A stretch of 24,000 nt of DNA. Source: Candidatus Heimdallarchaeota archaeon (GTDB taxonomy: Archaea > Asgardarchaeota > Heimdallarchaeia > Heimdallarchaeales > Heimdallarchaeaceae). Under the pieces are notes generated by a model that did no database searches, was not told the DNA's origin, and saw only the letters and a list, made by a program, of their open reading frames with translations. Positions 289-22,871 of the stretch are shown here, piece after piece. The translations under genes were made by a program, and so were the position numbers. The stretch's first letter is position 1; each line of letters starts with the position of its first letter. The stretch spans positions 158,762 to 182,761 of the forward strand of contig JAHLWR010000002.1 of NCBI GenBank assembly GCA_019057815.1, read 5' to 3'.

Positions 289-455
289 AATTAAACTTAC
301 GTTTATGGGTTTATAGATTTGTCTCTTTATACACGATTATCACAACAAAGAGTAATTACAAAAAGATGAATTTGAGAGCGATGAAACTAAAACAATTTTA
401 CATGTAAAAATTATTGTAACAATTTCTAAAAATATATATGAAAAGAAAAGAGAGT

Positions 456-1043
456 TTACTTATAGAATGCTTTTCTAAACTTCATTAAATCATGGCTGTA
501 CTGAATGGATAATCGCGCTGCATGATGAAAGAGAAGTTCTACATTATATGAAGATAAAGCAGAAGTTTCAATATAATCATAGTGATGAAGACGACAATAC
601 TCTATAATCTCTTCCCTATTGACAGCACGAGCTTCCTTAAGATCATATTTGTTTCCTGCTATAACAACTGGAATATCAGAACATTTTGATGATACTTCAT
701 TTGCCCAAGCTTCTATTTCGTCGAAGGAACTCATATTGGTAACATCATAAACTATTATTGCGCAACTAGCTCCCTCATAATATTTTGGTCTGAGATATGT
801 AAACATCTCTTGACCACCTGTATCCCAGATTGAGAGTCTAGCTGAAATTGGGTCATTTACCAACTTCTTTGAAAGATTTTCATTCATTAGTTCGGTTGGC
901 AAGTCAACAGTTTTTGTCAACCAACTCACTCCTAAAGTTGGTATGTAACTATGGACAAATGTATCCAATGTGAATCTTCTTGCTAGTGATGTTTTTCCAA
1001 CAAATGCCGAACCAACACATATTATTTTTTGTAGTTGATGCAC
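456..1043 (-). CDS. Eukaryote-type small GTPase (Rab/Ras-like, Asgard-type)
   Basis: G1 GSAFVGKT, switch-I Thr in YIPTLGV, G3 WDTGGQE, G4 GNKYD, G5 ETSAL. GTG start at 1043 lies 4 nt after a GGTGA SD that overlaps the stop of the upstream ORF. No C-terminal Cys/CAAX (ends KFRKAFYK). Confidence 0.88.
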   Translation of the reverse strand: MHQLQKIICVGSAFVGKTSLARRFTLDTFVHSYIPTLGVSWLTKTVDLPTELMNENLSKKLVNDPISARLSIWDTGGQEMFTYLRPKYYEGASCAIIVYDVTNMSSFDEIEAWANEVSSKCSDIPVVIAGNKYDLKEARAVNREEIIEYCRLHHYDYIETSALSSYNVELLFHHAARLSIQYSHDLMKFRKAFYK

Positions 1044-1047
1044 TTTT

Positions 1048-1052
1048 TCACC
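1048..1052 (-). promoter_or_regulatory. Shine-Dalgarno GGTGA for the GTPase gene, overlapping the upstream stop codon (translational coupling)
   Basis: Minus strand reads tgg cgg TGA aaaa GTG. GGTGA matches the canonical archaeal/bacterial anti-SD complement. Confidence 0.6.
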
Positions 1053-1902
1053 GCCATGTTATTATTAAAATACTTTTAATTAAATCTAAGCTTTTGAGCC
1101 TTTGCCATTCTGTTCGAATGGCTGTTGAGAGATTGTTCACTGCAACATGCCTATAGTTATCGATTCCTATCATTTCTATTATATATTCAACAAAGAACTG
1201 CAAAAGCTGTAAGAGCTCGTTCTTGATTTGTATTGTAATTCCGCATATGTTATCAACCTTCTTAATATTGAAACAATTATCATCATTTATGTCATAAATA
1301 TTTTTCAAACAGTCTGTATCAGTTGTCAGATATTCCTTAAAGATTCCAGGAATAGTATTAAGAAGAGCTTTTACTTTTAAATCCTCACTTGATTCACCAA
1401 AACCTCTAATCCCATCCCAAACCGAATTAAACACATTTTCAAAAACTTCAACCATATTTCTTTTATCAACATCATCGATGTGTGAATTTAATACATTCCA
1501 CAATAAAAATGAATGAGTTAGTGATTCTGAGACTTTTCGCCTATAGGATCCCTCTAATTCATTCAATAGATCCCTAGCTGATTGAGTATCGCGAATATCA
1601 AACGCGTTTAGAAATAATTTCATATAGAAAAACAATTGTGATGTTATCATTTCTTCTGAATATGTAACAGGGTTTACAAGAATAAATAGAAAAGAAAATT
1701 TGCTTAAAAAAACAATTTTAGCTTCGTTTAAATGAATGGTTTGAACTCCATTAAATAAATCACTTCCCTCAACGTTACTATAGAAAGAAAGAATCATGTC
1801 TATATTGTTATCAACATCTTCATCAGAAAAACCTTCAACTTGCAAAGGTTTGCAGAAAAGAACGTCGTATGTATCTTTGTTGACAATATAGAAACCTTTC
1901 AT
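1048..1902 (-). CDS. Uncharacterised protein with longin-like N-terminal domain and helical C-terminal domain; candidate partner/regulator of the adjacent GTPase
   Basis: 284-aa ORF. ATG at 1902 is preceded by GGTGAT SD (+ coords 1911-1916, 8-nt spacer). The stop overlaps the SD of the downstream GTPase. The N-terminal ~110 aa show a b-b-a-b-b-b-a hydrophobic periodicity. The fold assignment is inference only. Confidence 0.6.
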   Translation of the reverse strand: MKGFYIVNKDTYDVLFCKPLQVEGFSDEDVDNNIDMILSFYSNVEGSDLFNGVQTIHLNEAKIVFLSKFSFLFILVNPVTYSEEMITSQLFFYMKLFLNAFDIRDTQSARDLLNELEGSYRRKVSESLTHSFLLWNVLNSHIDDVDKRNMVEVFENVFNSVWDGIRGFGESSEDLKVKALLNTIPGIFKEYLTTDTDCLKNIYDINDDNCFNIKKVDNICGITIQIKNELLQLLQFFVEYIIEMIGIDNYRHVAVNNLSTAIRTEWQRLKSLDLIKSILIITWR

Positions 1903-2010
1903 TGTATCTAATCACCAGATATCTATTAATGAAATAATAAAAAATCATTTAAAAGATTATCCGCAGTTGCAATAACAAAAGAAAAGCAGGTAGAATGTAA
2001 CCTAAAGTTT

Positions 2011-4197
<2,187 letters not shown>

Positions 4198-9258: not shown

Positions 9259-9558
9259 ATGATTTCACAAAAACAATTTGAAGAAACCCTTAAAAAATTG
9301 GAAACACATCCTGGCGTAAGAGGCGTCATAATCACAAGTAATGATGGTTTACCTATATCAAGTACAAAGAATTTATCTATGGAAATGAGGGAAAACGTTT
9401 CTGCCTTAGTAGCTTCTTTAGTTGGTAGAGCAAAAGCAGTTGTAACCGAATTAAGAGAAGGGGAATTGAATTTTTTCACGTTAGACACCAGCAAAGGTGA
9501 AATACTAGTAGCACCTGAAAACGATTATATTTTAATCGTATTAAGAGTCAAAAGCTAA
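9259..9558 (+). CDS. Roadblock/LC7 (MglB-like) domain protein
   Basis: 99 aa. [19 protein letters not shown] ... [10 protein letters not shown] ... [24 protein letters not shown] is the typical Roadblock/LC7 pattern. Confidence 0.87.
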
Positions 9559-9586
9559 TACCAAAGCAAATTATTGAGGATAGAAG

Positions 9587-10153
9587 ATGAGAAAAGACGC
9601 ATCTGGAAAAATGCACTTTAAGCTGGTTTTTGTCGGACCAAGTATGGCTGGCAAAACAACATTTCTTAAAAAACTTCATACAGATGTAACTGGAATTAAA
9701 AAAGGAGGATTGAACAGTATCGAAGATCCTTCTGGACGAACGATTTATTTTGACTTTAGCCCGTTCATGGCAACATCAAATGTTATTCTAGATATATATA
9801 CGGTAGCAGGTCAAAGAAGACATAGGCATCAGAGATCTTTGGTATTAAAAGGAGTAGATGGATTGCTTTTTGTGGCAGATTCATCAAGAGATTTATTAGC
9901 AGATAACGTTGAATCAGCAGAAGAATTGAAAAAAGAATTAGGAGACAAAATCATAACTGAAATTCCTATAGTTTTATCTTTGAATAAAAGAGATGTTCCA
10001 GATGCCATGGATAAAAGAGAGTTAATAGATGCATTAGATTTGGGTGATGGTATTCCTGTTTTTGAGACAATCGCAATAGAAGGAATAGGAGTTAAACGAG
10101 CCTTTCAATCCTTAGCACGAGATGTTATGTTAAAAAAGTTATATCAAATTTAA
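9587..10153 (+). CDS. MglA-type small GTPase
   Basis: G1 GPSMAGKTT. G3 is the MglA-specific TxxGQ form (IYTVAGQ) followed by LVLKGVDGLLFVADS. G4 LNKRD. GAGGA SD at 9576-9580. Only 28 nt downstream of the Roadblock gene. Confidence 0.85.
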   Translation: MRKDASGKMHFKLVFVGPSMAGKTTFLKKLHTDVTGIKKGGLNSIEDPSGRTIYFDFSPFMATSNVILDIYTVAGQRRHRHQRSLVLKGVDGLLFVADSSRDLLADNVESAEELKKELGDKIITEIPIVLSLNKRDVPDAMDKRELIDALDLGDGIPVFETIAIEGIGVKRAFQSLARDVMLKKLYQI

Positions 10154-13750: not shown

Positions 13751-14677
13751 TTAAAAATTTTCTATAGTTTGTATAGCTATTATCTCTCTTTCTTGTTCCT
13801 TTATCAGGTGCTTTTCCCAAGTTTCTGAGTCCAAAATCATTTGAAGCATCTGTTCAAATTGCTTTCTATTCTCAAAAATCTCGAATGCTCCTTCGATCCC
13901 ATCACTATCAAAACTTAACCAATCATTGCAAACTTCAGCAACAAATTCTGCAAATCTTTGATAAGCTTTCTTTTGGTCTTTGTTCTGGGTAATAACAATA
14001 GCAAAAGCTTTTTGGATTACTTTGAAATAAATGGTTAGCTTTTCTCCCTCTATTTTTTTTAATTTTCCTATCCCAATAAGTTGCCCTAAATCTAATATTG
14101 CGGATACGAAAGAAGAAAAAAGTACTGCATCATATGGTAACAAAAGTGTAGTCATCATATATACTGGTTGGCCTGAACTGGTAGCTATAAGTAAGTCAAC
14201 GTCACTAATCAATAGAGCATCACTGTCTTCATCTTTGCTTTCTACAGCAATTTCTGTTTCCAATTTAACACGTTTGTTTATAATTAAATTTAGATGCCTA
14301 GCGAATCTAGAGATATATTTTTGTTCTTTTAAAAGGAATGATTCTTCTGCTAACAGGCTATTAATCTCATCTTTGTTTACTAAAGGATGGAAATTGTTTT
14401 TGAACTCATTCTTCACTCTTTTTACAATTGATTGTTTTGTATATTGATTTTTTACAATTGCCAAAATATAATCGTTCTTCGTTTCACAAATAATCTCGAA
14501 ATCTTCAAACTCAATATTTTTTGGTGATGTTTCACCTAATTCTGTGATAATAGTAGTGATAGCGGTTAAATAGCTTACAATTCCTACCTGTAAATCATCC
14601 TTTCCCCATTCATCGTTGTAAATGCGATAATATCGACAGGAACCACTCTTCTTCAATATCAAAATAGCTTTTACCAA
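13751..14677 (-). CDS. Uncharacterised protein with two tandem longin/roadblock-like modules
   Basis: 308 aa with a TTG start (first possible start after an in-frame stop). Residues 1-~95 and ~150-~250 each show a strand-strand-helix-strand-strand-strand-helix periodicity (KAILILKK/CRYYRIY..IVSYLTAITTIITELG..IEFEDFEIICETKNDYILAIVKN and ALLISDVDLLIATSSGQPVYMM..AVLFSSFVSAILDLGQLIG..KIEGEKLTIYFKVIQKAFAIVITQ). The fold call is inference. Confidence 0.55.
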   Translation of the reverse strand: MVKAILILKKSGSCRYYRIYNDEWGKDDLQVGIVSYLTAITTIITELGETSPKNIEFEDFEIICETKNDYILAIVKNQYTKQSIVKRVKNEFKNNFHPLVNKDEINSLLAEESFLLKEQKYISRFARHLNLIINKRVKLETEIAVESKDEDSDALLISDVDLLIATSSGQPVYMMTTLLLPYDAVLFSSFVSAILDLGQLIGIGKLKKIEGEKLTIYFKVIQKAFAIVITQNKDQKKAYQRFAEFVAEVCNDWLSFDSDGIEGAFEIFENRKQFEQMLQMILDSETWEKHLIKEQEREIIAIQTIENF

Positions 14678-16365: not shown

Positions 16366-17583
16366 ATGACTCAAAAGTTGCTATTAAGCGAAGCATTAGA
16401 CTGGTTTAGTAAACAGATATCTTCCACTCTGGCAAGTTACAGAAATAATGCTCATAAAAATATAAGAACAATCCATAATAAAATTGAAGATTTAATAACT
16501 GCAGCCCACAGGTTTGACTACTCAGATATTAAAGACCCTGATGTGTACCAAAATTATGCTACAACTATTTTTAATAAAACAATTGAAATATTTGAAAAAA
16601 TAGTACCACCAGAAGTAGTAACTTACAAAAAGATTGAAGAATACAATAATATTTGTAAAAATCAAATTGCTACATATATGAATCTCCTCTCCAAATACCT
16701 TTCATGGTTAAAAAGAGACCGCTCTTACAAAGACAAAGTAAAGAATCTTGATCGAGTTCTAGGGAGATTAAAAGAAGAAGTCCACAAGTTTGAAAATAAG
16801 ACAATGGTACATTATTCTGAAATCATAAAATATGAAAAAGTTATTGATGACATCGAAGAATTACAAATTAATGTTCAAAGTAGAACTGAGTTGAATGAAG
16901 AAATTGATTCACACTCTGAAGATATCAAGAGATTGACAGAAATAGTTGAAGAAAAGAATGGTGTACTAAAAGAACTTAAAGATCATCCTGGTTTTGTGCA
17001 ATTTGAACAGAATAAGCACGAATTAGAAAAAATCGAAATTATTCTTTCAAACAAAGTATCAGAAATTAAGAAACTCTCAAATAAAGTGATTAAAGCAGTA
17101 GAATCAAAGAAAATAGAAATCGATAACTATGACAAAGAAACACTAAAAAATTTGATAAAAGACCCTTTGGGAGTTTTAATAAGAGAATCAGATGGATATA
17201 GAGGTTTAAAGGCTATATTGAACACGCTTAAAGAAAGCAGCACTCTTCCAGCTATTCAAATGAAGAAAGATAAACTTGAGAGAGCTTATGAAAACATAGA
17301 CGAAATATTAAACGATGAGTTGCTAGAACACCAAAAAAGAGCAAAATTCCTGATACAACAAAATGATGCAATAGACTATAAATTCAAAGAAATGGAAATA
17401 GATGTCAAAATAAAAAGATATGAAAAGGAAATTGACAATCTTAAAATTGATATAGACAGAATCACCCTACCTCTTCGAAGAGAATTAGAAAATGTAGAGA
17501 AAAAAATTACGACAGCAAAAGAAACTATTGAAACAAGAGTTCTTAATTTTACGAAACAGTCAGTTTCTCTAATATTTGATTAA
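16366..17583 (+). CDS. Long alpha-helical/coiled-coil protein, function unknown
   Basis: 405 aa, K/E/I/N rich with heptad-like periodicity through most of its length. No enzymatic motifs recognised. Confidence 0.6.
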   Translation: MTQKLLLSEALDWFSKQISSTLASYRNNAHKNIRTIHNKIEDLITAAHRFDYSDIKDPDVYQNYATTIFNKTIEIFEKIVPPEVVTYKKIEEYNNICKNQIATYMNLLSKYLSWLKRDRSYKDKVKNLDRVLGRLKEEVHKFENKTMVHYSEIIKYEKVIDDIEELQINVQSRTELNEEIDSHSEDIKRLTEIVEEKNGVLKELKDHPGFVQFEQNKHELEKIEIILSNKVSEIKKLSNKVIKAVESKKIEIDNYDKETLKNLIKDPLGVLIRESDGYRGLKAILNTLKESSTLPAIQMKKDKLERAYENIDEILNDELLEHQKRAKFLIQQNDAIDYKFKEMEIDVKIKRYEKEIDNLKIDIDRITLPLRRELENVEKKITTAKETIETRVLNFTKQSVSLIFD

Positions 17584-17668: not shown

Positions 17669-18589
17669 TTAAAGCAAACCTTTCTCAACAAGTAAACGAA
17701 ACTCGCTCATTGAGAGATTTTCTCCTTCCTCATACTTCGAAAAAGCCTTTTGAACATTCTCCTCGAGACTACTTTGTATTTGATCTTTCCTTTCTTTTCT
17801 AATCTGCTTTTGGATGCTTTTCATCTTTTGTCTTAAATCATGCCTGAGTCGTACTTTGGAAAGGAAATCTCTGTGAAAATGGTCAGCTTTCTTTTTAGTC
17901 ACTAAAAATTTATTATGCCAGTCATTAGCATCTTTTCGGAGCTTATTTACTTGTTGAAAAGATTGTGATCCTAAATTATGATAGATTTGAGATTCTTTTG
18001 CATCATTAATTATTCGTTGGTTTAAACTATGAAGCTTCTTCTGTGAAGAATTTATAACCTGCCATAGTAGAGTTCCTTTTGTAGATAGATTAACCTTTTT
18101 AGCAATTCCATTAAATTGTTCAGATAAACTCTCTAACTGTTGAATTATCTCTTTCTCTTTATTTATTGATAAAATTTGAGTTTGAAGGTTCCATTCAAGC
18201 TTTTTAATTTGATCATTCAACCTATGCATCTGTTTTCTGTTTTTTCTGAGTTCACCTTCACCCATCTTTTCATCTGATTCAGAAAGTAATGAAAGTTCTA
18301 TTCTACTCTCTTTAAGAGTTTCTTGATCTTTTTTTCTTGTATCTTTCAACTCTTTTACTTGAATATTAGTCTCATCTCTTTTAGAAATGTAATCCTTTGC
18401 TATTTTCAAATGATTACTAATCTCTTGGTTAATTTCGTTTCGTTTTGTTAAGGCTTCTTTTGTTAGAGTATTATTGTCATCTCTTTCTTTTTTGAGAATC
18501 TGGATTTCTTCTTGAAGTTTACTCAACGCAACAGCTATCTCCTCTATATTATTTTGCTCAACTGTTGGTTCATCTATCATATTACACAA
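17669..18589 (-). CDS. Coiled-coil protein, function unknown (architecture reminiscent of the conserved ~300-aa archaeal coiled-coil family, COG1340-like)
   Basis: 306 aa, two long heptad-rich segments, short C-terminal module KYEEGENLSMSEFRLLVEKGLL. The family assignment is from memory and unverified. Confidence 0.6.
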   Translation of the reverse strand: MCNMIDEPTVEQNNIEEIAVALSKLQEEIQILKKERDDNNTLTKEALTKRNEINQEISNHLKIAKDYISKRDETNIQVKELKDTRKKDQETLKESRIELSLLSESDEKMGEGELRKNRKQMHRLNDQIKKLEWNLQTQILSINKEKEIIQQLESLSEQFNGIAKKVNLSTKGTLLWQVINSSQKKLHSLNQRIINDAKESQIYHNLGSQSFQQVNKLRKDANDWHNKFLVTKKKADHFHRDFLSKVRLRHDLRQKMKSIQKQIRKERKDQIQSSLEENVQKAFSKYEEGENLSMSEFRLLVEKGLL

Positions 18590-18754: not shown

Positions 18755-19906
18755 TTACCACTTCACCTCCTCTAGAGCGAAGAGCGTGCGACAGTAAAAC
18801 AAATAACTGTGGTGATAAACCTGATGTTGCTCCAAAGGACAGGGAGCAAAACGGTTACAGTTCCACACTGCAAGGGGAATAAGGGTGAGGAGGAGGTAAT
18901 GGAGTAAGGTATGCAAGATTAGTGCACTCCACAGGAGCTGGAAACGCACACAAGCGTTATGAGAACATGTTCGGAGGAGGAGAGGACGCATATCGCGGAA
19001 AGCATTCTCTATACGGAAGCGACGTTTATACCACTGAACGATCCTGTAAGCACTGTAATGTGCGAGAGAAGTAACCCAAGGGTTGGCACCATCTCGACTA
19101 TAATAGACCACTCCACGTGTTGTAATATGGCGACGACCAAGGGATTTTCCCGACAGGATACGATGATGGAAAGTATACCCATCTCCCTCCTTGCCTTGTT
19201 GTTCTAATGCCAAACAGCTTTTCTTTAGTCCTCCTGCATAATAACCTCTAATAATATAGTCCCACCCATAAGTGTGTAAAGTGTTGAGTAGACCAATATG
19301 GTAATATTTACCATCACCAAGGAAAACTATCTTTTGTCCAGTTAGAAACCATTGTTGGAGTTCTTGAACAAGAAGGATAGCTGTCTTTGCTTCTGACTCT
19401 TTCATGGGACTCAACGCCACCAACAGTGGTCTTCCAGGATGGACAATATAGAGTGTTATAACTCTCGTAAACGTTGTTGTTGACTGCTTTCTTCTCCCCC
19501 CACAGATCCAATCCATTTTTTTACCATAATAAGGTTCGTCATGGGCATCGACAGCTAAGAAAATGGTTTTCTTCCTGTACCTTCTTTGGATGCAGTAGAA
19601 TTTCTTACTTAAGAACACATTCACTTCTTGTCGTATAGCTTCTGGCTCTCCCCTTTTTAACCTTCTAATCATCGTTTGACTCGTTGGGGTCTGCATGTAT
19701 GTCTTTCTTCTTACCCCTTCGTCCTCTAATGAATTCCCAGGACTAATCATTGCTTGTATAAGGAATTTTTTAATCTCCTCTGAAGTATATTTGTCTTTCT
19801 GTTTTTCCTCACTTGCTATTGGCAGTTGTCGAACGATGTGCTCACTCAAAAGTTTATAAAAGCTTTTACCATATTTTCTATAGAGGTGTGGGTTTGTTTT
19901 TGTCAT
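18755..19906 (-). CDS. DDE transposase, IS4 superfamily (ISH3-like)
   Basis: 383 aa. Candidate D (IFLAVDAHDEP), D (VFLGDGKYY), and E inside a Y-2-R-3-E-6-(K/R) signature (YKRRFRIENAFRDMR), which is characteristic of IS4-type transposases. Confidence 0.85.
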   Translation of the reverse strand: MTKTNPHLYRKYGKSFYKLLSEHIVRQLPIASEEKQKDKYTSEEIKKFLIQAMISPGNSLEDEGVRRKTYMQTPTSQTMIRRLKRGEPEAIRQEVNVFLSKKFYCIQRRYRKKTIFLAVDAHDEPYYGKKMDWICGGRRKQSTTTFTRVITLYIVHPGRPLLVALSPMKESEAKTAILLVQELQQWFLTGQKIVFLGDGKYYHIGLLNTLHTYGWDYIIRGYYAGGLKKSCLALEQQGKEGDGYTFHHRILSGKSLGRRHITTRGVVYYSRDGANPWVTSLAHYSAYRIVQWYKRRFRIENAFRDMRPLLLRTCSHNACVRFQLLWSALILHTLLHYLLLTLIPLAVWNCNRFAPCPLEQHQVYHHSYLFYCRTLFALEEVKW

Positions 19907-20000: not shown

Positions 20001-20390
20001 TTATGACAATAAACGTTCAACTTCTTGTGAAGCACGTGCCATATCTAAAAAGACTAAACCAAGTTTTGCTTCTTTTCTCGCTGACACAGTAAGTACAGCA
20101 TTTGCTCCTGCAGAGATAGTAATAATGTAACCATAAGCTCCTTCTATGAAAATCTTTTCTAGTTCTCCTCGTTGCATTTCTTGAGCTACTCTTTCACCAA
20201 GTGACAACATTGCTGCAGTCATAGCTGCAAGACGAGCTTCTTCAATCTCTTGAGGGAGTACAGAAGCAATGGGGAGGCCTTCAATTGATACAATTGCAGC
20301 GCTGTCTATCTCTGGAACTTTTATTTTTAAATCCGCTAGAGCAGTTTTTAATTCTGTTGTTTTGTCTTCGAATGTTATACCAAAAGCCAT
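20001..20390 (-). CDS. Roadblock/LC7 (MglB-like) domain protein, no adjacent GTPase
   Basis: 129 aa. VPEIDSAAIVSIEGLPIASVLP ... AAMTAAMLSLGERVA ... IFIEGAYGYIITISAGANAVLTVSA..AKLGLVFLDM is the canonical Roadblock pattern. Confidence 0.87.
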   Translation of the reverse strand: MAFGITFEDKTTELKTALADLKIKVPEIDSAAIVSIEGLPIASVLPQEIEEARLAAMTAAMLSLGERVAQEMQRGELEKIFIEGAYGYIITISAGANAVLTVSARKEAKLGLVFLDMARASQEVERLLS

Positions 20391-22082: not shown

Positions 22083-22871
22083 TCATTCATAAAAATCATC
22101 TTTTTCTCCAAATTCTCTTTCAATTGTACCAACAAGGGTATCAATATTAAATCCACTTTGAGAACTGATAGGGAACAAATCACCTGTTACTTTAAACTGA
22201 TTTAACAAATCAACAATACTTAGACTAAGCTGTTGAGTGAGAGAAATATTTTGGGTTTGCCTTATGTCAGCAATAAGAGTTGAAGGTTCTTCAATCCACC
22301 TTTCAAGTCTCTCCAATTGTTGTTTTTCGATAAGGTCTTCCTTTGAAATTGCTACTATTTGTGGAAGTGAAAGTTGGAAAGCAATAGAAACACTAAGAAG
22401 TAATAGACTTGAGAATCCTTCAGGACGCATTATAAGTGAAGGATCGATTAGGAATACAGACACAGATTGACTTTCTTCGGCTATAATAGAAGAAACTAGA
22501 CGACCACTACTTCGATATGCAAAAAGTTCTATCTGCCCTGGAGTATCAATAAGTAAGTATTCTGGTTTTAGATAGTCGATTTCAGATTTAACCTTGTCAA
22601 TTTTTGTTGCAATAAGATCCATACTGGCTATCATAGCCCCATTTGGTCCAAGTTGATATTTTTCAATTAATTCATCAATATCGATGATATCTCTTACATC
22701 GATATCTGGATTATACGGTAATCTACGTACTCCTGCATCTAAGTTTAGAGTCGCAACATCTAGACGTTTATCATCGAACCAGTCATATAAAGTTCTAGTG
22801 AGAAATGTTTTACCACTTCCTGCTGTTCCAAGCATAAAAATTGTATAATATCTTTGAGCCATTTTTCTCAT
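22083..22871 (-). CDS. GPN-loop GTPase
   Basis: Walker A GTAGSGKTF, GPN motif LGPNGA, and DTPGQIELF. Its start overlaps the upstream stop (ATGA). Confidence 0.92.
   Translation of the reverse strand: MRKMAQRYYTIFMLGTAGSGKTFLTRTLYDWFDDKRLDVATLNLDAGVRRLPYNPDIDVRDIIDIDELIEKYQLGPNGAMIASMDLIATKIDKVKSEIDYLKPEYLLIDTPGQIELFAYRSSGRLVSSIIAEESQSVSVFLIDPSLIMRPEGFSSLLLLSVSIAFQLSLPQIVAISKEDLIEKQQLERLERWIEEPSTLIADIRQTQNISLTQQLSLSIVDLLNQFKVTGDLFPISSQSGFNIDTLVGTIEREFGEKDDFYE

Follow-up and report, generated by a model that had tools for sequence, protein, structure and literature searches.

A stretch of 24,000 nucleotides (nt) from the Candidatus Heimdallarchaeota archaeon contig JAHLWR010000002.1 (positions 158,762 to 182,761; this whole stretch is hereafter the window) encodes an uncharacterised protein of 284 amino acids (aa), the product of open reading frame (ORF) 1, immediately upstream of a Rab-like GTPase. 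ORF1 carries an N-terminal longin domain followed by a helical domain, its coupling to the GTPase gene is conserved among the Heimdallarchaeaceae, and linkage of its homologues to Rab-like GTPases recurs in a second Asgard class. Gene context and fold together make it likely that the two proteins are direct physical partners, and our preferred, though tentative, reading is that ORF1 is a longin-platform regulator cognate to the adjoining GTPase. Asgard archaea possess dozens of Rab-, Arf- and Rag-like GTPases and also dozens of longin and roadblock proteins. In Prometheoarchaeum MK-D1 the genes of the GTPases generally do not lie in operons with roadblock or longin genes, and regulators are accordingly hard to match with their clients (Tran et al., PMC10933270). 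The pair described here provides a defined candidate regulator and GTPase, testable in the closest known relatives of eukaryotes, and allows one to ask whether Rab-type switches were already under longin-platform control before eukaryotes arose and, further, how such control worked without prenylation, GDP dissociation inhibitor (GDI) or organelles.

The gene pair and its junction

The two genes occupy the minus strand, at the coordinates first claimed for them, as established from the ORF listing and by direct reading of the sequence. The features of the locus are:

1048..1902, minus strand: ORF1, 284 aa, ATG at 1902-1900; uncharacterised protein with longin and helical domains
456..1043, minus strand: Rab-like GTPase gene, 195 aa, GTG start
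1048..1055, minus strand: coupling junction GGCGGTGA, holding the last codons of ORF1 (W-R) and its stop
1911..1916, minus strand: Shine-Dalgarno-like GGTGAT, 8 nt 5' of the ORF1 ATG, from direct sequence reading
1948..1953, minus strand: TTTAAA, candidate archaeal TATA box, 46-51 nt 5' of the ORF1 ATG, read by eye
421..455, minus strand: T-rich tract (TTTT, TTTT, TTTTT on the coding strand), directly 3' of the GTPase stop, read by eye
2011-4197, minus strand: CDC48/p97-type double AAA+ ATPase, 728 aa, 108 nt upstream of ORF1

ORF1 ends with TGG CGG TGA, the TGA (1050-1048) lying within GGCGGTGA, and the four nucleotides AAAA separate this stop from the GTG start (1043-1041) of the GTPase gene. 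The original prediction had placed the stop inside a GGTGA Shine-Dalgarno sequence 4 nt before that GTG and had given ORF1 a GGTGAT of its own, and both can be read directly in the sequence. Judged from the sequence, the terminal codons and stop of ORF1 are the Shine-Dalgarno sequence of the GTPase gene, and the two genes constitute a bicistronic, translationally coupled unit that is presumably also co-transcribed; the two proteins would therefore be produced together and in roughly equal amounts. The TTTAAA in the 108-nt spacer between CDC48 and ORF1 is a possible archaeal TATA box, and the T-rich tract a possible archaeal terminator closing the two-gene unit; the next gene, encoding a CBS-domain protein, starts near 290, about 165 nt beyond the GTPase gene.

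Searching from ORF1 yielded 24 first-round loci (the window, five contigs and 19 GTDB species representatives), in every one of which the GTPase gene lies directly downstream of ORF1 with a gap of 2-6 nt, at ORF1 identities of 25-89%. The junction takes the form TGG-AGG/AGA/CGG-stop, 2-6 nt, ATG (24/24 first-round loci), and recurs in all three loci that were found from the GTPase side (L031-L033). Alongside the 27 loci at which the junction was measured, 15 metagenome loci with enough upstream sequence were scored for adjacency only, and all 15 have a member of the ORF1 family directly upstream of the GTPase orthologue. The two most divergent GTPase orthologues, one of which lies in the closed genome of Candidatus Heimdallarchaeum aukensis, likewise have an ORF1-family gene 2-5 nt upstream. 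Conservation of the adjacency, which had been put forward as a check on the original prediction, is thus borne out in every Heimdallarchaeaceae locus examined and from both search directions. The terminal W-R is absent from the subfamilies of ORF1 homologues that have no downstream GTPase, which suggests that coupling, and not the protein itself, is the reason for the retention of these two codons. The C-terminal coding sequence of ORF1 is, as a side observation, a case of protein-coding sequence apparently shaped by a translational-coupling signal (window 1048-1056; junctions L001-L033).

Linkage to Rab-like GTPases reappeared in a control set that had not been planned, consisting of 64 loci of non-orthologous Rab-like GTPases. 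A full-length ORF1 homologue is immediately adjacent to the GTPase gene in three of these, all from Asgardarchaeia and each in a different arrangement: in L051 the homologue lies upstream of the GTPase gene and in L057 downstream of it, sharing its strand in both cases, and in L077 the two genes are convergent. Adjacency at such a rate is very unlikely to arise by chance for a gene that is roughly single-copy.

A longin domain followed by a helical domain

ORF1 divides into two regions:

1540..1902, minus strand: longin domain, residues 1-121, from the AlphaFold2 model, Foldseek and a sub-threshold Pfam match
1051..1539, minus strand: C-terminal helical domain, residues 122-284, from the AlphaFold2 models

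The full-length AlphaFold2 model, built from a 27-sequence alignment, has a predicted local distance difference test score (pLDDT) of 70, with values of about 60-80 across the longin region. In this model strands β1 (2-8), β2 (14-20), β3 (54-58), β4 (61-68) and β5 (71-76) and helices α1 (27-44), α2 (83-100) and α3 (106-121) give residues 1-121 the order β-β-α-β-β-β-α-α, which is the longin order; the β-β-α-β-β-β-α arrangement followed by helices that had been proposed from the sequence is thereby reproduced. Comparison of the model with the PDB by Foldseek, a test suggested at the outset, returned only longin/roadblock proteins among its top 50 matches (50/50; E 6e-4 to 2e-2), including AP sigma, AP mu, zeta-COP, Sec22b, Mon1, Ccz1, Ragulator, CPLANE and TRAPP, and against single-domain targets the target-normalised TM-score is mostly 0.4-0.68. 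The sole Pfam match of ORF1 is to Fuz_longin_1 (PF19036), the first longin domain of FUZ/MON1/HPS1, with E 0.002 and 18.8 bits, below the cut-off of 26.1. The same model, and no other longin model, is matched by 10 of 16 diverse members of the ORF1 family (best E 2.4e-4). Pfam gave no curated longin or roadblock model above its gathering threshold, NCBIfam gave no match, and family profiles run against PDB sequences found nothing meaningful (best hits an interferon at E 0.29 and a sulfotransferase at E 0.05). Robl_LC7 (PF03259) in particular has no Pfam match in ORF1, while two other genes of the window match it strongly, and the ORF1 model opens with two strands, unlike the roadblock topology, in which an N-terminal helix comes first.

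The β1-β2 loop and strand β2 of ORF1 read NKDTYDVLFCKP (family consensus NKxxMEVLFCRP), a segment in which the Gly-Pro (GP) motif is absent; the homologues of Atabeyarchaeia type have SGRCLF at the β1-β2 position and likewise lack GP. Residues 1-121 hold no superfamily-invariant arginine, R121 and R122 being kept only in the close subfamily. The segment GSYRRKVSESLTHSF (residues 118-132, window ~1507-1551) is among the most conserved of the Heimdall subfamily and at the same time has the lowest model confidence of ORF1 (pLDDT <50), a combination that, if the model is taken at face value, is typical of a loop ordered only upon partner binding.

The C-terminal domain comprises a 45-residue helix (127-171), a small β-hairpin (203-213) and four further helices. 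Modelled alone (residues 101-284, 45-sequence alignment) it reaches a pLDDT of 79 and a predicted template modelling score (pTM) of 0.69. Foldseek found no meaningful fold match for it in the PDB, the best being generic helical bundles at E 0.3 and probability 0.21. Assignments as a DENN, TBC, Sec7, Vps9 or SNARE domain were considered and rejected, there being no Pfam or fold match to any of them. The domain holds the superfamily-invariant residues E152 and R268, and the protein ends in ...ITWR, with neither a hydrophobic tail nor a cysteine.

The ORF1 family and its Asgard relatives

Only 45 homologues of ORF1 were found among 5.8 billion proteins, all of them hypothetical proteins and every named one from Candidatus Heimdallarchaeaceae or Heimdallarchaeota, and when 1.84 billion cluster representatives were searched exhaustively with a profile, just 12 representatives of the family were recovered. 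The family is therefore small and lineage-restricted. A second subfamily (P0055-P0070), with Candidatus Atabeyarchaeum deiterrae among its members, was reached by iterating with a divergent alignment, and it aligns with the Heimdall subfamily over 251 columns (hhalign, 93.6% probability, E 2e-7). All 16 of its members independently match Fuz_longin_1, with a best E of 2.1e-5. A third subfamily, from Candidatus Asgardarchaeia, was found through the metagenome scan. The three subfamilies align end to end, with F97, E152 and R268 invariant. Proteins that join a longin to a helical domain in this way are therefore an ancient Asgard type, one that has gone without annotation; to judge by these searches, ORF1 founds a small, Asgard-only family. 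Two neighbours of the Atabeyarchaeia-type homologues, of 337 and 335 aa, were viewed as candidate partners; they are mutually unrelated and neither has a significant Pfam domain match.

In Sifarchaeia contigs the N-terminal region of a protein encoded on the minus strand at L098 (630-1499) and L099 (3631-4401) matches the ORF1 superfamily profile with E ~4e-10. Its C-terminus is unlike that of ORF1, being repeated and winged-helix-like in appearance, and its gene is convergent with that of a Rab-like GTPase bearing its own 8-aa interswitch insert.

A distinctive Rab-like GTPase

The GTPase matches the Pfam Ras family at 1.1e-44, and its closest solved relatives are Rab11, Rab6, Rab1 and Ypt1 (E ~1e-30), with the Thorarchaeota Rab 7ezb also listed. 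Its orthogroup, named 'Rab family GTPase' by NCBI, consists of 31 clusters at identities of at least 56%, every named one from Heimdallarchaeaceae or Heimdallarchaeota; beyond it identity falls to 45% or less, with eukaryotic Rabs, the next relatives, at 36-39%. The motifs GSAFVGKT, YIPTLGV, WDTGGQE, NKYD and ETSA listed in the original prediction are all present, and so are the two departures from typical Rabs that it described, an insert of about 15 residues, which appears in HMMER alignments as a 14-15 residue gap against Rab11 and Rab6 at residues ~49-64, and the missing C-terminal cysteine, the tail HDLMKFRKAFYK containing none. Three elements are of particular interest:

843..905, minus strand: interswitch insert DLPTELMNENLSKKLVNDPIS, residues 47-67, in the β2-β3 hairpin, about 15 aa extra
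990..1013, minus strand: P-loop GSAFVGKT, with Ala and Phe at the equivalents of Ras Gly12 and Gly13; orthogroup-specific
807..827, minus strand: G3/switch II WDTGGQE, catalytic Gln retained; conserved in all orthologues

All orthologues conserve the insert, whose consensus is L-T-x-E-x-L-N-E-N-L-S/T-K (LNENLxK), and the closest Asgard and eukaryotic Rabs outside the orthogroup do not have it. GSAFVGKT is likewise found in all orthologues, where relatives have GD(A/S)GVGKT. At the level of sequence, an insert and a P-loop confined to one orthogroup would fit a private partner. A C-terminal (prenylation) cysteine is lacking in every orthologue, where the eukaryotic Rabs aligned with them terminate in CC or CXC, and the GTPase also lacks an N-terminal myristoylation glycine. 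Signature motifs RabF1-F5 were reportedly defined by Pereira-Leal and Seabra; by eye, we take LGVSW, RLSIW, YYEGA and IVYDVT to resemble RabF1, F2, F4 and F5, while the RabF3 region (MFTYLRP) does not fit its signature. With a mean p-distance of 0.28, compared with 0.47 for ORF1, the GTPase evolves more slowly than its neighbour.

The proposed role of ORF1 and its alternatives

In the reading that we favour, ORF1 would be a longin platform, probably a dimer like other longin/roadblock platforms, whose target is the Rab-like GTPase encoded 4 nt downstream: it would attach to the switch/interswitch face of this protein and set its nucleotide state. Longin and roadblock domains are the GTPase-binding platforms of Mon1-Ccz1, TRAPP, DENN proteins, Ragulator, the longin GTPase-activating proteins (GAPs) and MglB. 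Binding and control of the GTPase by ORF1 are proposed because such platforms recur in this role, longin platforms having been described as a recurrent class of GTPase-binding module (PMC10933270). Provided that the partnership is direct, ORF1 may quite possibly be a guanine nucleotide exchange factor (GEF), although we hold this with reserve; it would then promote nucleotide exchange much as Mon1-Ccz1 or Fuzzy-Inturned do with their catalytic first longin domains. Two points place a GEF ahead of a GAP, in particular one with an arginine finger: the sole sequence affinity of ORF1 is to the first longin domains of Rab GEFs, and its β1-β2 loop lacks the GP motif, which, located before strand β2, marks longins of GAP type (PMC12290439). 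The family-specific helical domain would supply specificity or localisation, and it may dock the orthogroup-specific interswitch insert of the GTPase. E152 and R268 of ORF1 and the LNENLxK insert and GSAFVGKT P-loop of the GTPase present themselves as targets for mutation. A bolder version, which we consider improbable, derives ORF1 from the same stock as the catalytic first longin domain of Mon1/Fuzzy/HPS1, making it the archaeal forerunner of that domain, or its sister, in single-gene form; with the GTPase it would constitute the first prokaryotic cognate Rab-RabGEF module. Were it true, such a module would have been fixed as an operon in Heimdallarchaeaceae and only loosely linked in Asgardarchaeia, and the helical domain and private interswitch insert would represent a recognition mechanism that eukaryotes lack.

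Several observations weigh against the regulatory reading. Known longin GEFs are heterodimers or contain three longin domains, whereas ORF1 has one longin domain and its operon holds no paralogous partner gene. The most conserved surface of ORF1 is the region of α2/α3 and the long helix, and not the α1 face, which is the one that Mon1-Ccz1 uses. Support for the longin assignment is itself moderate (pLDDT ~70, Foldseek E ~1e-3, Pfam below the gathering threshold). Most of the remaining evidence on this side concerns gene context, and it is also what speaks for the alternative that the two proteins do not interact at all, being co-expressed for some other reason, with ORF1 serving CDC48 or another GTPase and the adjacency simply inherited synteny. 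We judge this unlikely, though it has more to be said for it than any other alternative. CDC48 lies upstream of ORF1 in most Heimdallarchaeaceae loci, within a syntenic series of FEN1, methyltransferase, ferredoxin-like protein, CDC48, ORF1, GTPase and CBS protein, and adjacency within the family may be partly inherited because the whole neighbourhood is syntenic. The Atabeyarchaeia-type homologues have no adjoining GTPase in four contexts, and the family can therefore function unlinked. In a mirror-tree comparison the pairwise distances of ORF1, GTPase and CDC48 all correlate at 0.92-0.95, and the partial correlation of ORF1 with CDC48 given the GTPase (0.64) is no lower than that of ORF1 with the GTPase given CDC48 (0.54), so that there is no specific co-evolution signal beyond shared phylogeny. 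Against an absence of interaction stands locus L003, where an Arf-like GTPase replaces CDC48 and the downstream genes are rearranged while the ORF1-GTPase pair is intact. Furthermore, the junction, with a gap of 2-6 nt and a Shine-Dalgarno sequence embedded in it, persists down to 25% ORF1 identity, the linkage to a Rab-like GTPase reappears in Asgardarchaeia in three gene orders, and longin platforms recurrently bind GTPases (PMC10933270). The Arf-like GTPase directly upstream of the ORF1 homologue in L003 is an orthologue of a 188-aa GTPase encoded elsewhere in the window; no Roadblock gene was found upstream of it in L003.

If ORF1 does bind the GTPase, it could instead be a GAP of MglB type that binds the GTP form and allosterically repositions the catalytic Gln of the GTPase itself, with no arginine finger. 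Gene order with the regulator first and translational coupling match the mglBA operon of bacteria and archaea, the catalytic Gln is retained in WDTGGQE, and the organism uses modules of this sort, as seen in the Roadblock and Arf/MglA-like GTPase pair at 9259-10153 of the window. The invariant R268, or the conserved R121/R122 or R148, could also serve as an arginine finger, but conservation of R121, R122 and R148 does not extend to distant members. Since, moreover, the topology of ORF1 is longin rather than roadblock, with no Robl_LC7 match in Pfam, the GP motif of longin GAPs is missing and a longin domain of GEF type is the closest sequence model, we regard a GAP as rather unlikely. A partner without catalytic activity, whether effector, adaptor, chaperone or localisation factor, would bind stoichiometrically and leave nucleotide kinetics unchanged; it could, for example, take the place of the lipid anchor that the GTPase lacks, or link it to some other machine. 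This would suit the 1:1 production suggested by translational coupling and typical of obligate complexes, a GTPase devoid of prenylation cysteines and of an N-terminal myristoylation glycine, and the large additional domain of ORF1, and longin domains are known to serve as adaptors too, for example in the AP sigma subunits and in SR-alpha, whose SRX domain acts with SR-beta. No transmembrane or obvious amphipathic membrane-binding segment is seen by eye in ORF1, however, and its closest sequence signal is to catalytic GEF longin domains, and we therefore place this role below that of a GAP, with little probability. A longin-SNARE-like protein of Ykt6/Sec22 type, its long helix acting as a SNARE-like coiled coil and the GTPase acting upstream of it, would account for a longin domain followed by a highly conserved 45-residue helix and for the presence of the Sec22b longin domain among the top structural matches. 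Yet ORF1 has no Synaptobrevin or SNARE match in Pfam and neither a C-terminal transmembrane segment nor a lipidation cysteine, while its C-terminal region models as a compact bundle (pTM 0.69) rather than an extended helix and matched no SNARE structure, which together make this very improbable.

Relation to known systems

MglB and MglA, a roadblock GAP and a Ras-like GTPase, are encoded by the mglBA operon of Myxococcus and of many prokaryotes. The Heimdallarchaeal pair resembles this system as a prokaryotic two-gene module in which the regulator gene lies immediately upstream of that for the small GTPase, co-transcription being presumed here, and in that ORF1 belongs to the roadblock/longin structural superfamily; it differs in that ORF1 has longin topology, no Robl_LC7 signal and an extra helical domain of ~160 aa, and in that the GTPase is Rab-like, unlike MglA. 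Closer in sequence are the Rab GEFs built from three longin domains, Mon1-Ccz1, Fuzzy-Inturned (CPLANE) and HPS1-HPS4 (BLOC-3). PF19036 is matched in two subfamilies of ORF1 homologues, below threshold, Mon1, Ccz1 and CPLANE chains are among the structural matches, and the putative client is of Rab type. Unlike these GEFs, ORF1 has one longin domain instead of three, residues 122-284 being helical with no longin match. The longin GAP complexes FLCN-FNIP, GATOR1 (Nprl2-Nprl3) and C9orf72-SMCR8 share with the proposed system a longin domain proposed to act directly on a small GTPase, but ORF1 lacks their GP motif and DENN domain, and its client would be Rab-like and not Rag or Arf. Relatives of longin GAPs that possess the GP motif have been reported in Heimdallarchaeia (PMC12290439). 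The GTPase shares motifs G1-G5 with eukaryotic Rabs and the Thorarchaeota Rab 7ezb, and is distinguished from eukaryotic Rabs by the 15-aa interswitch insert, GSAFVGKT, WDTGGQE in place of WDTAGQE, and the lack of a C-terminal Cys.

A LAMTOR1-like roadblock protein has been predicted to share an Asgard operon with a Rab-like GTPase and a DENN protein, and this operon was proposed as a GEF module (Liu et al., bioRxiv 10.1101/2020.10.19.343400). It too joins an Asgard protein of the roadblock superfamily to a Rab-like GTPase; here the proteins are different, there is no DENN gene, and the two-gene unit is confined to Heimdallarchaeaceae. The novelty that the original prediction attached to an operon-encoded Rab and regulator must accordingly be narrowed, since operons of roadblock-superfamily and Rab-like proteins had already been predicted in Asgard archaea (bioRxiv 10.1101/2020.10.19.343400) and MglB-MglA is the classical prokaryotic case. 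What is new is an unannotated family that combines a longin domain with a novel domain and is firmly tied to a single Rab-like orthogroup; the underlying idea is not new. In the literature searched we found neither an account of the ORF1 family nor any report that the first longin domain of Mon1/Fuzzy has an Asgard relative.

Other genes in the window

The window holds in total three small or GPN GTPases and four genes of roadblock or longin type. A second regulator-GTPase pair is formed by a 99-aa Roadblock/LC7 protein (9259-9558, plus strand; Pfam 1e-20, also LAMTOR5-like) and the 188-aa Arf-like GTPase mentioned above (9587-10153, plus strand), with 28 nt between the genes; the P-loop VGPSMAGKTT and the TVAGQ of this GTPase look MglA-like. 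Another Roadblock/LC7 protein, of 129 aa, is encoded at 20001-20390 (minus strand; Pfam 8e-17), and a GPN-loop GTPase (ATP_bind_1, 1e-56) at 22083-22871 (minus strand).

A 308-aa protein encoded at 13751-14677 (minus strand), 12 kb from ORF1, scores 25.1 bits with Fuz_longin_1, just below the cut-off of 26.1, and apparently contains two longin-like repeats (ILKKSGSCRYY... and IATSSGQPVYM...). As a detectable paralogue of ORF1 it was rejected (hhalign, 0.3% probability), and may be either a further longin protein of Mon1/Fuzzy type or a protein that partners ORF1. Two uncharacterised proteins are encoded in the same part of the window, one of 405 aa (16366-17583, plus strand) without a Pfam match and a DUF7121 protein of 306 aa (17669-18589, minus strand). 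They are followed by a DDE transposase (DDE_Tnp_1, 1e-14; 18755-19906, minus strand), which marks an insertion sequence within the window.

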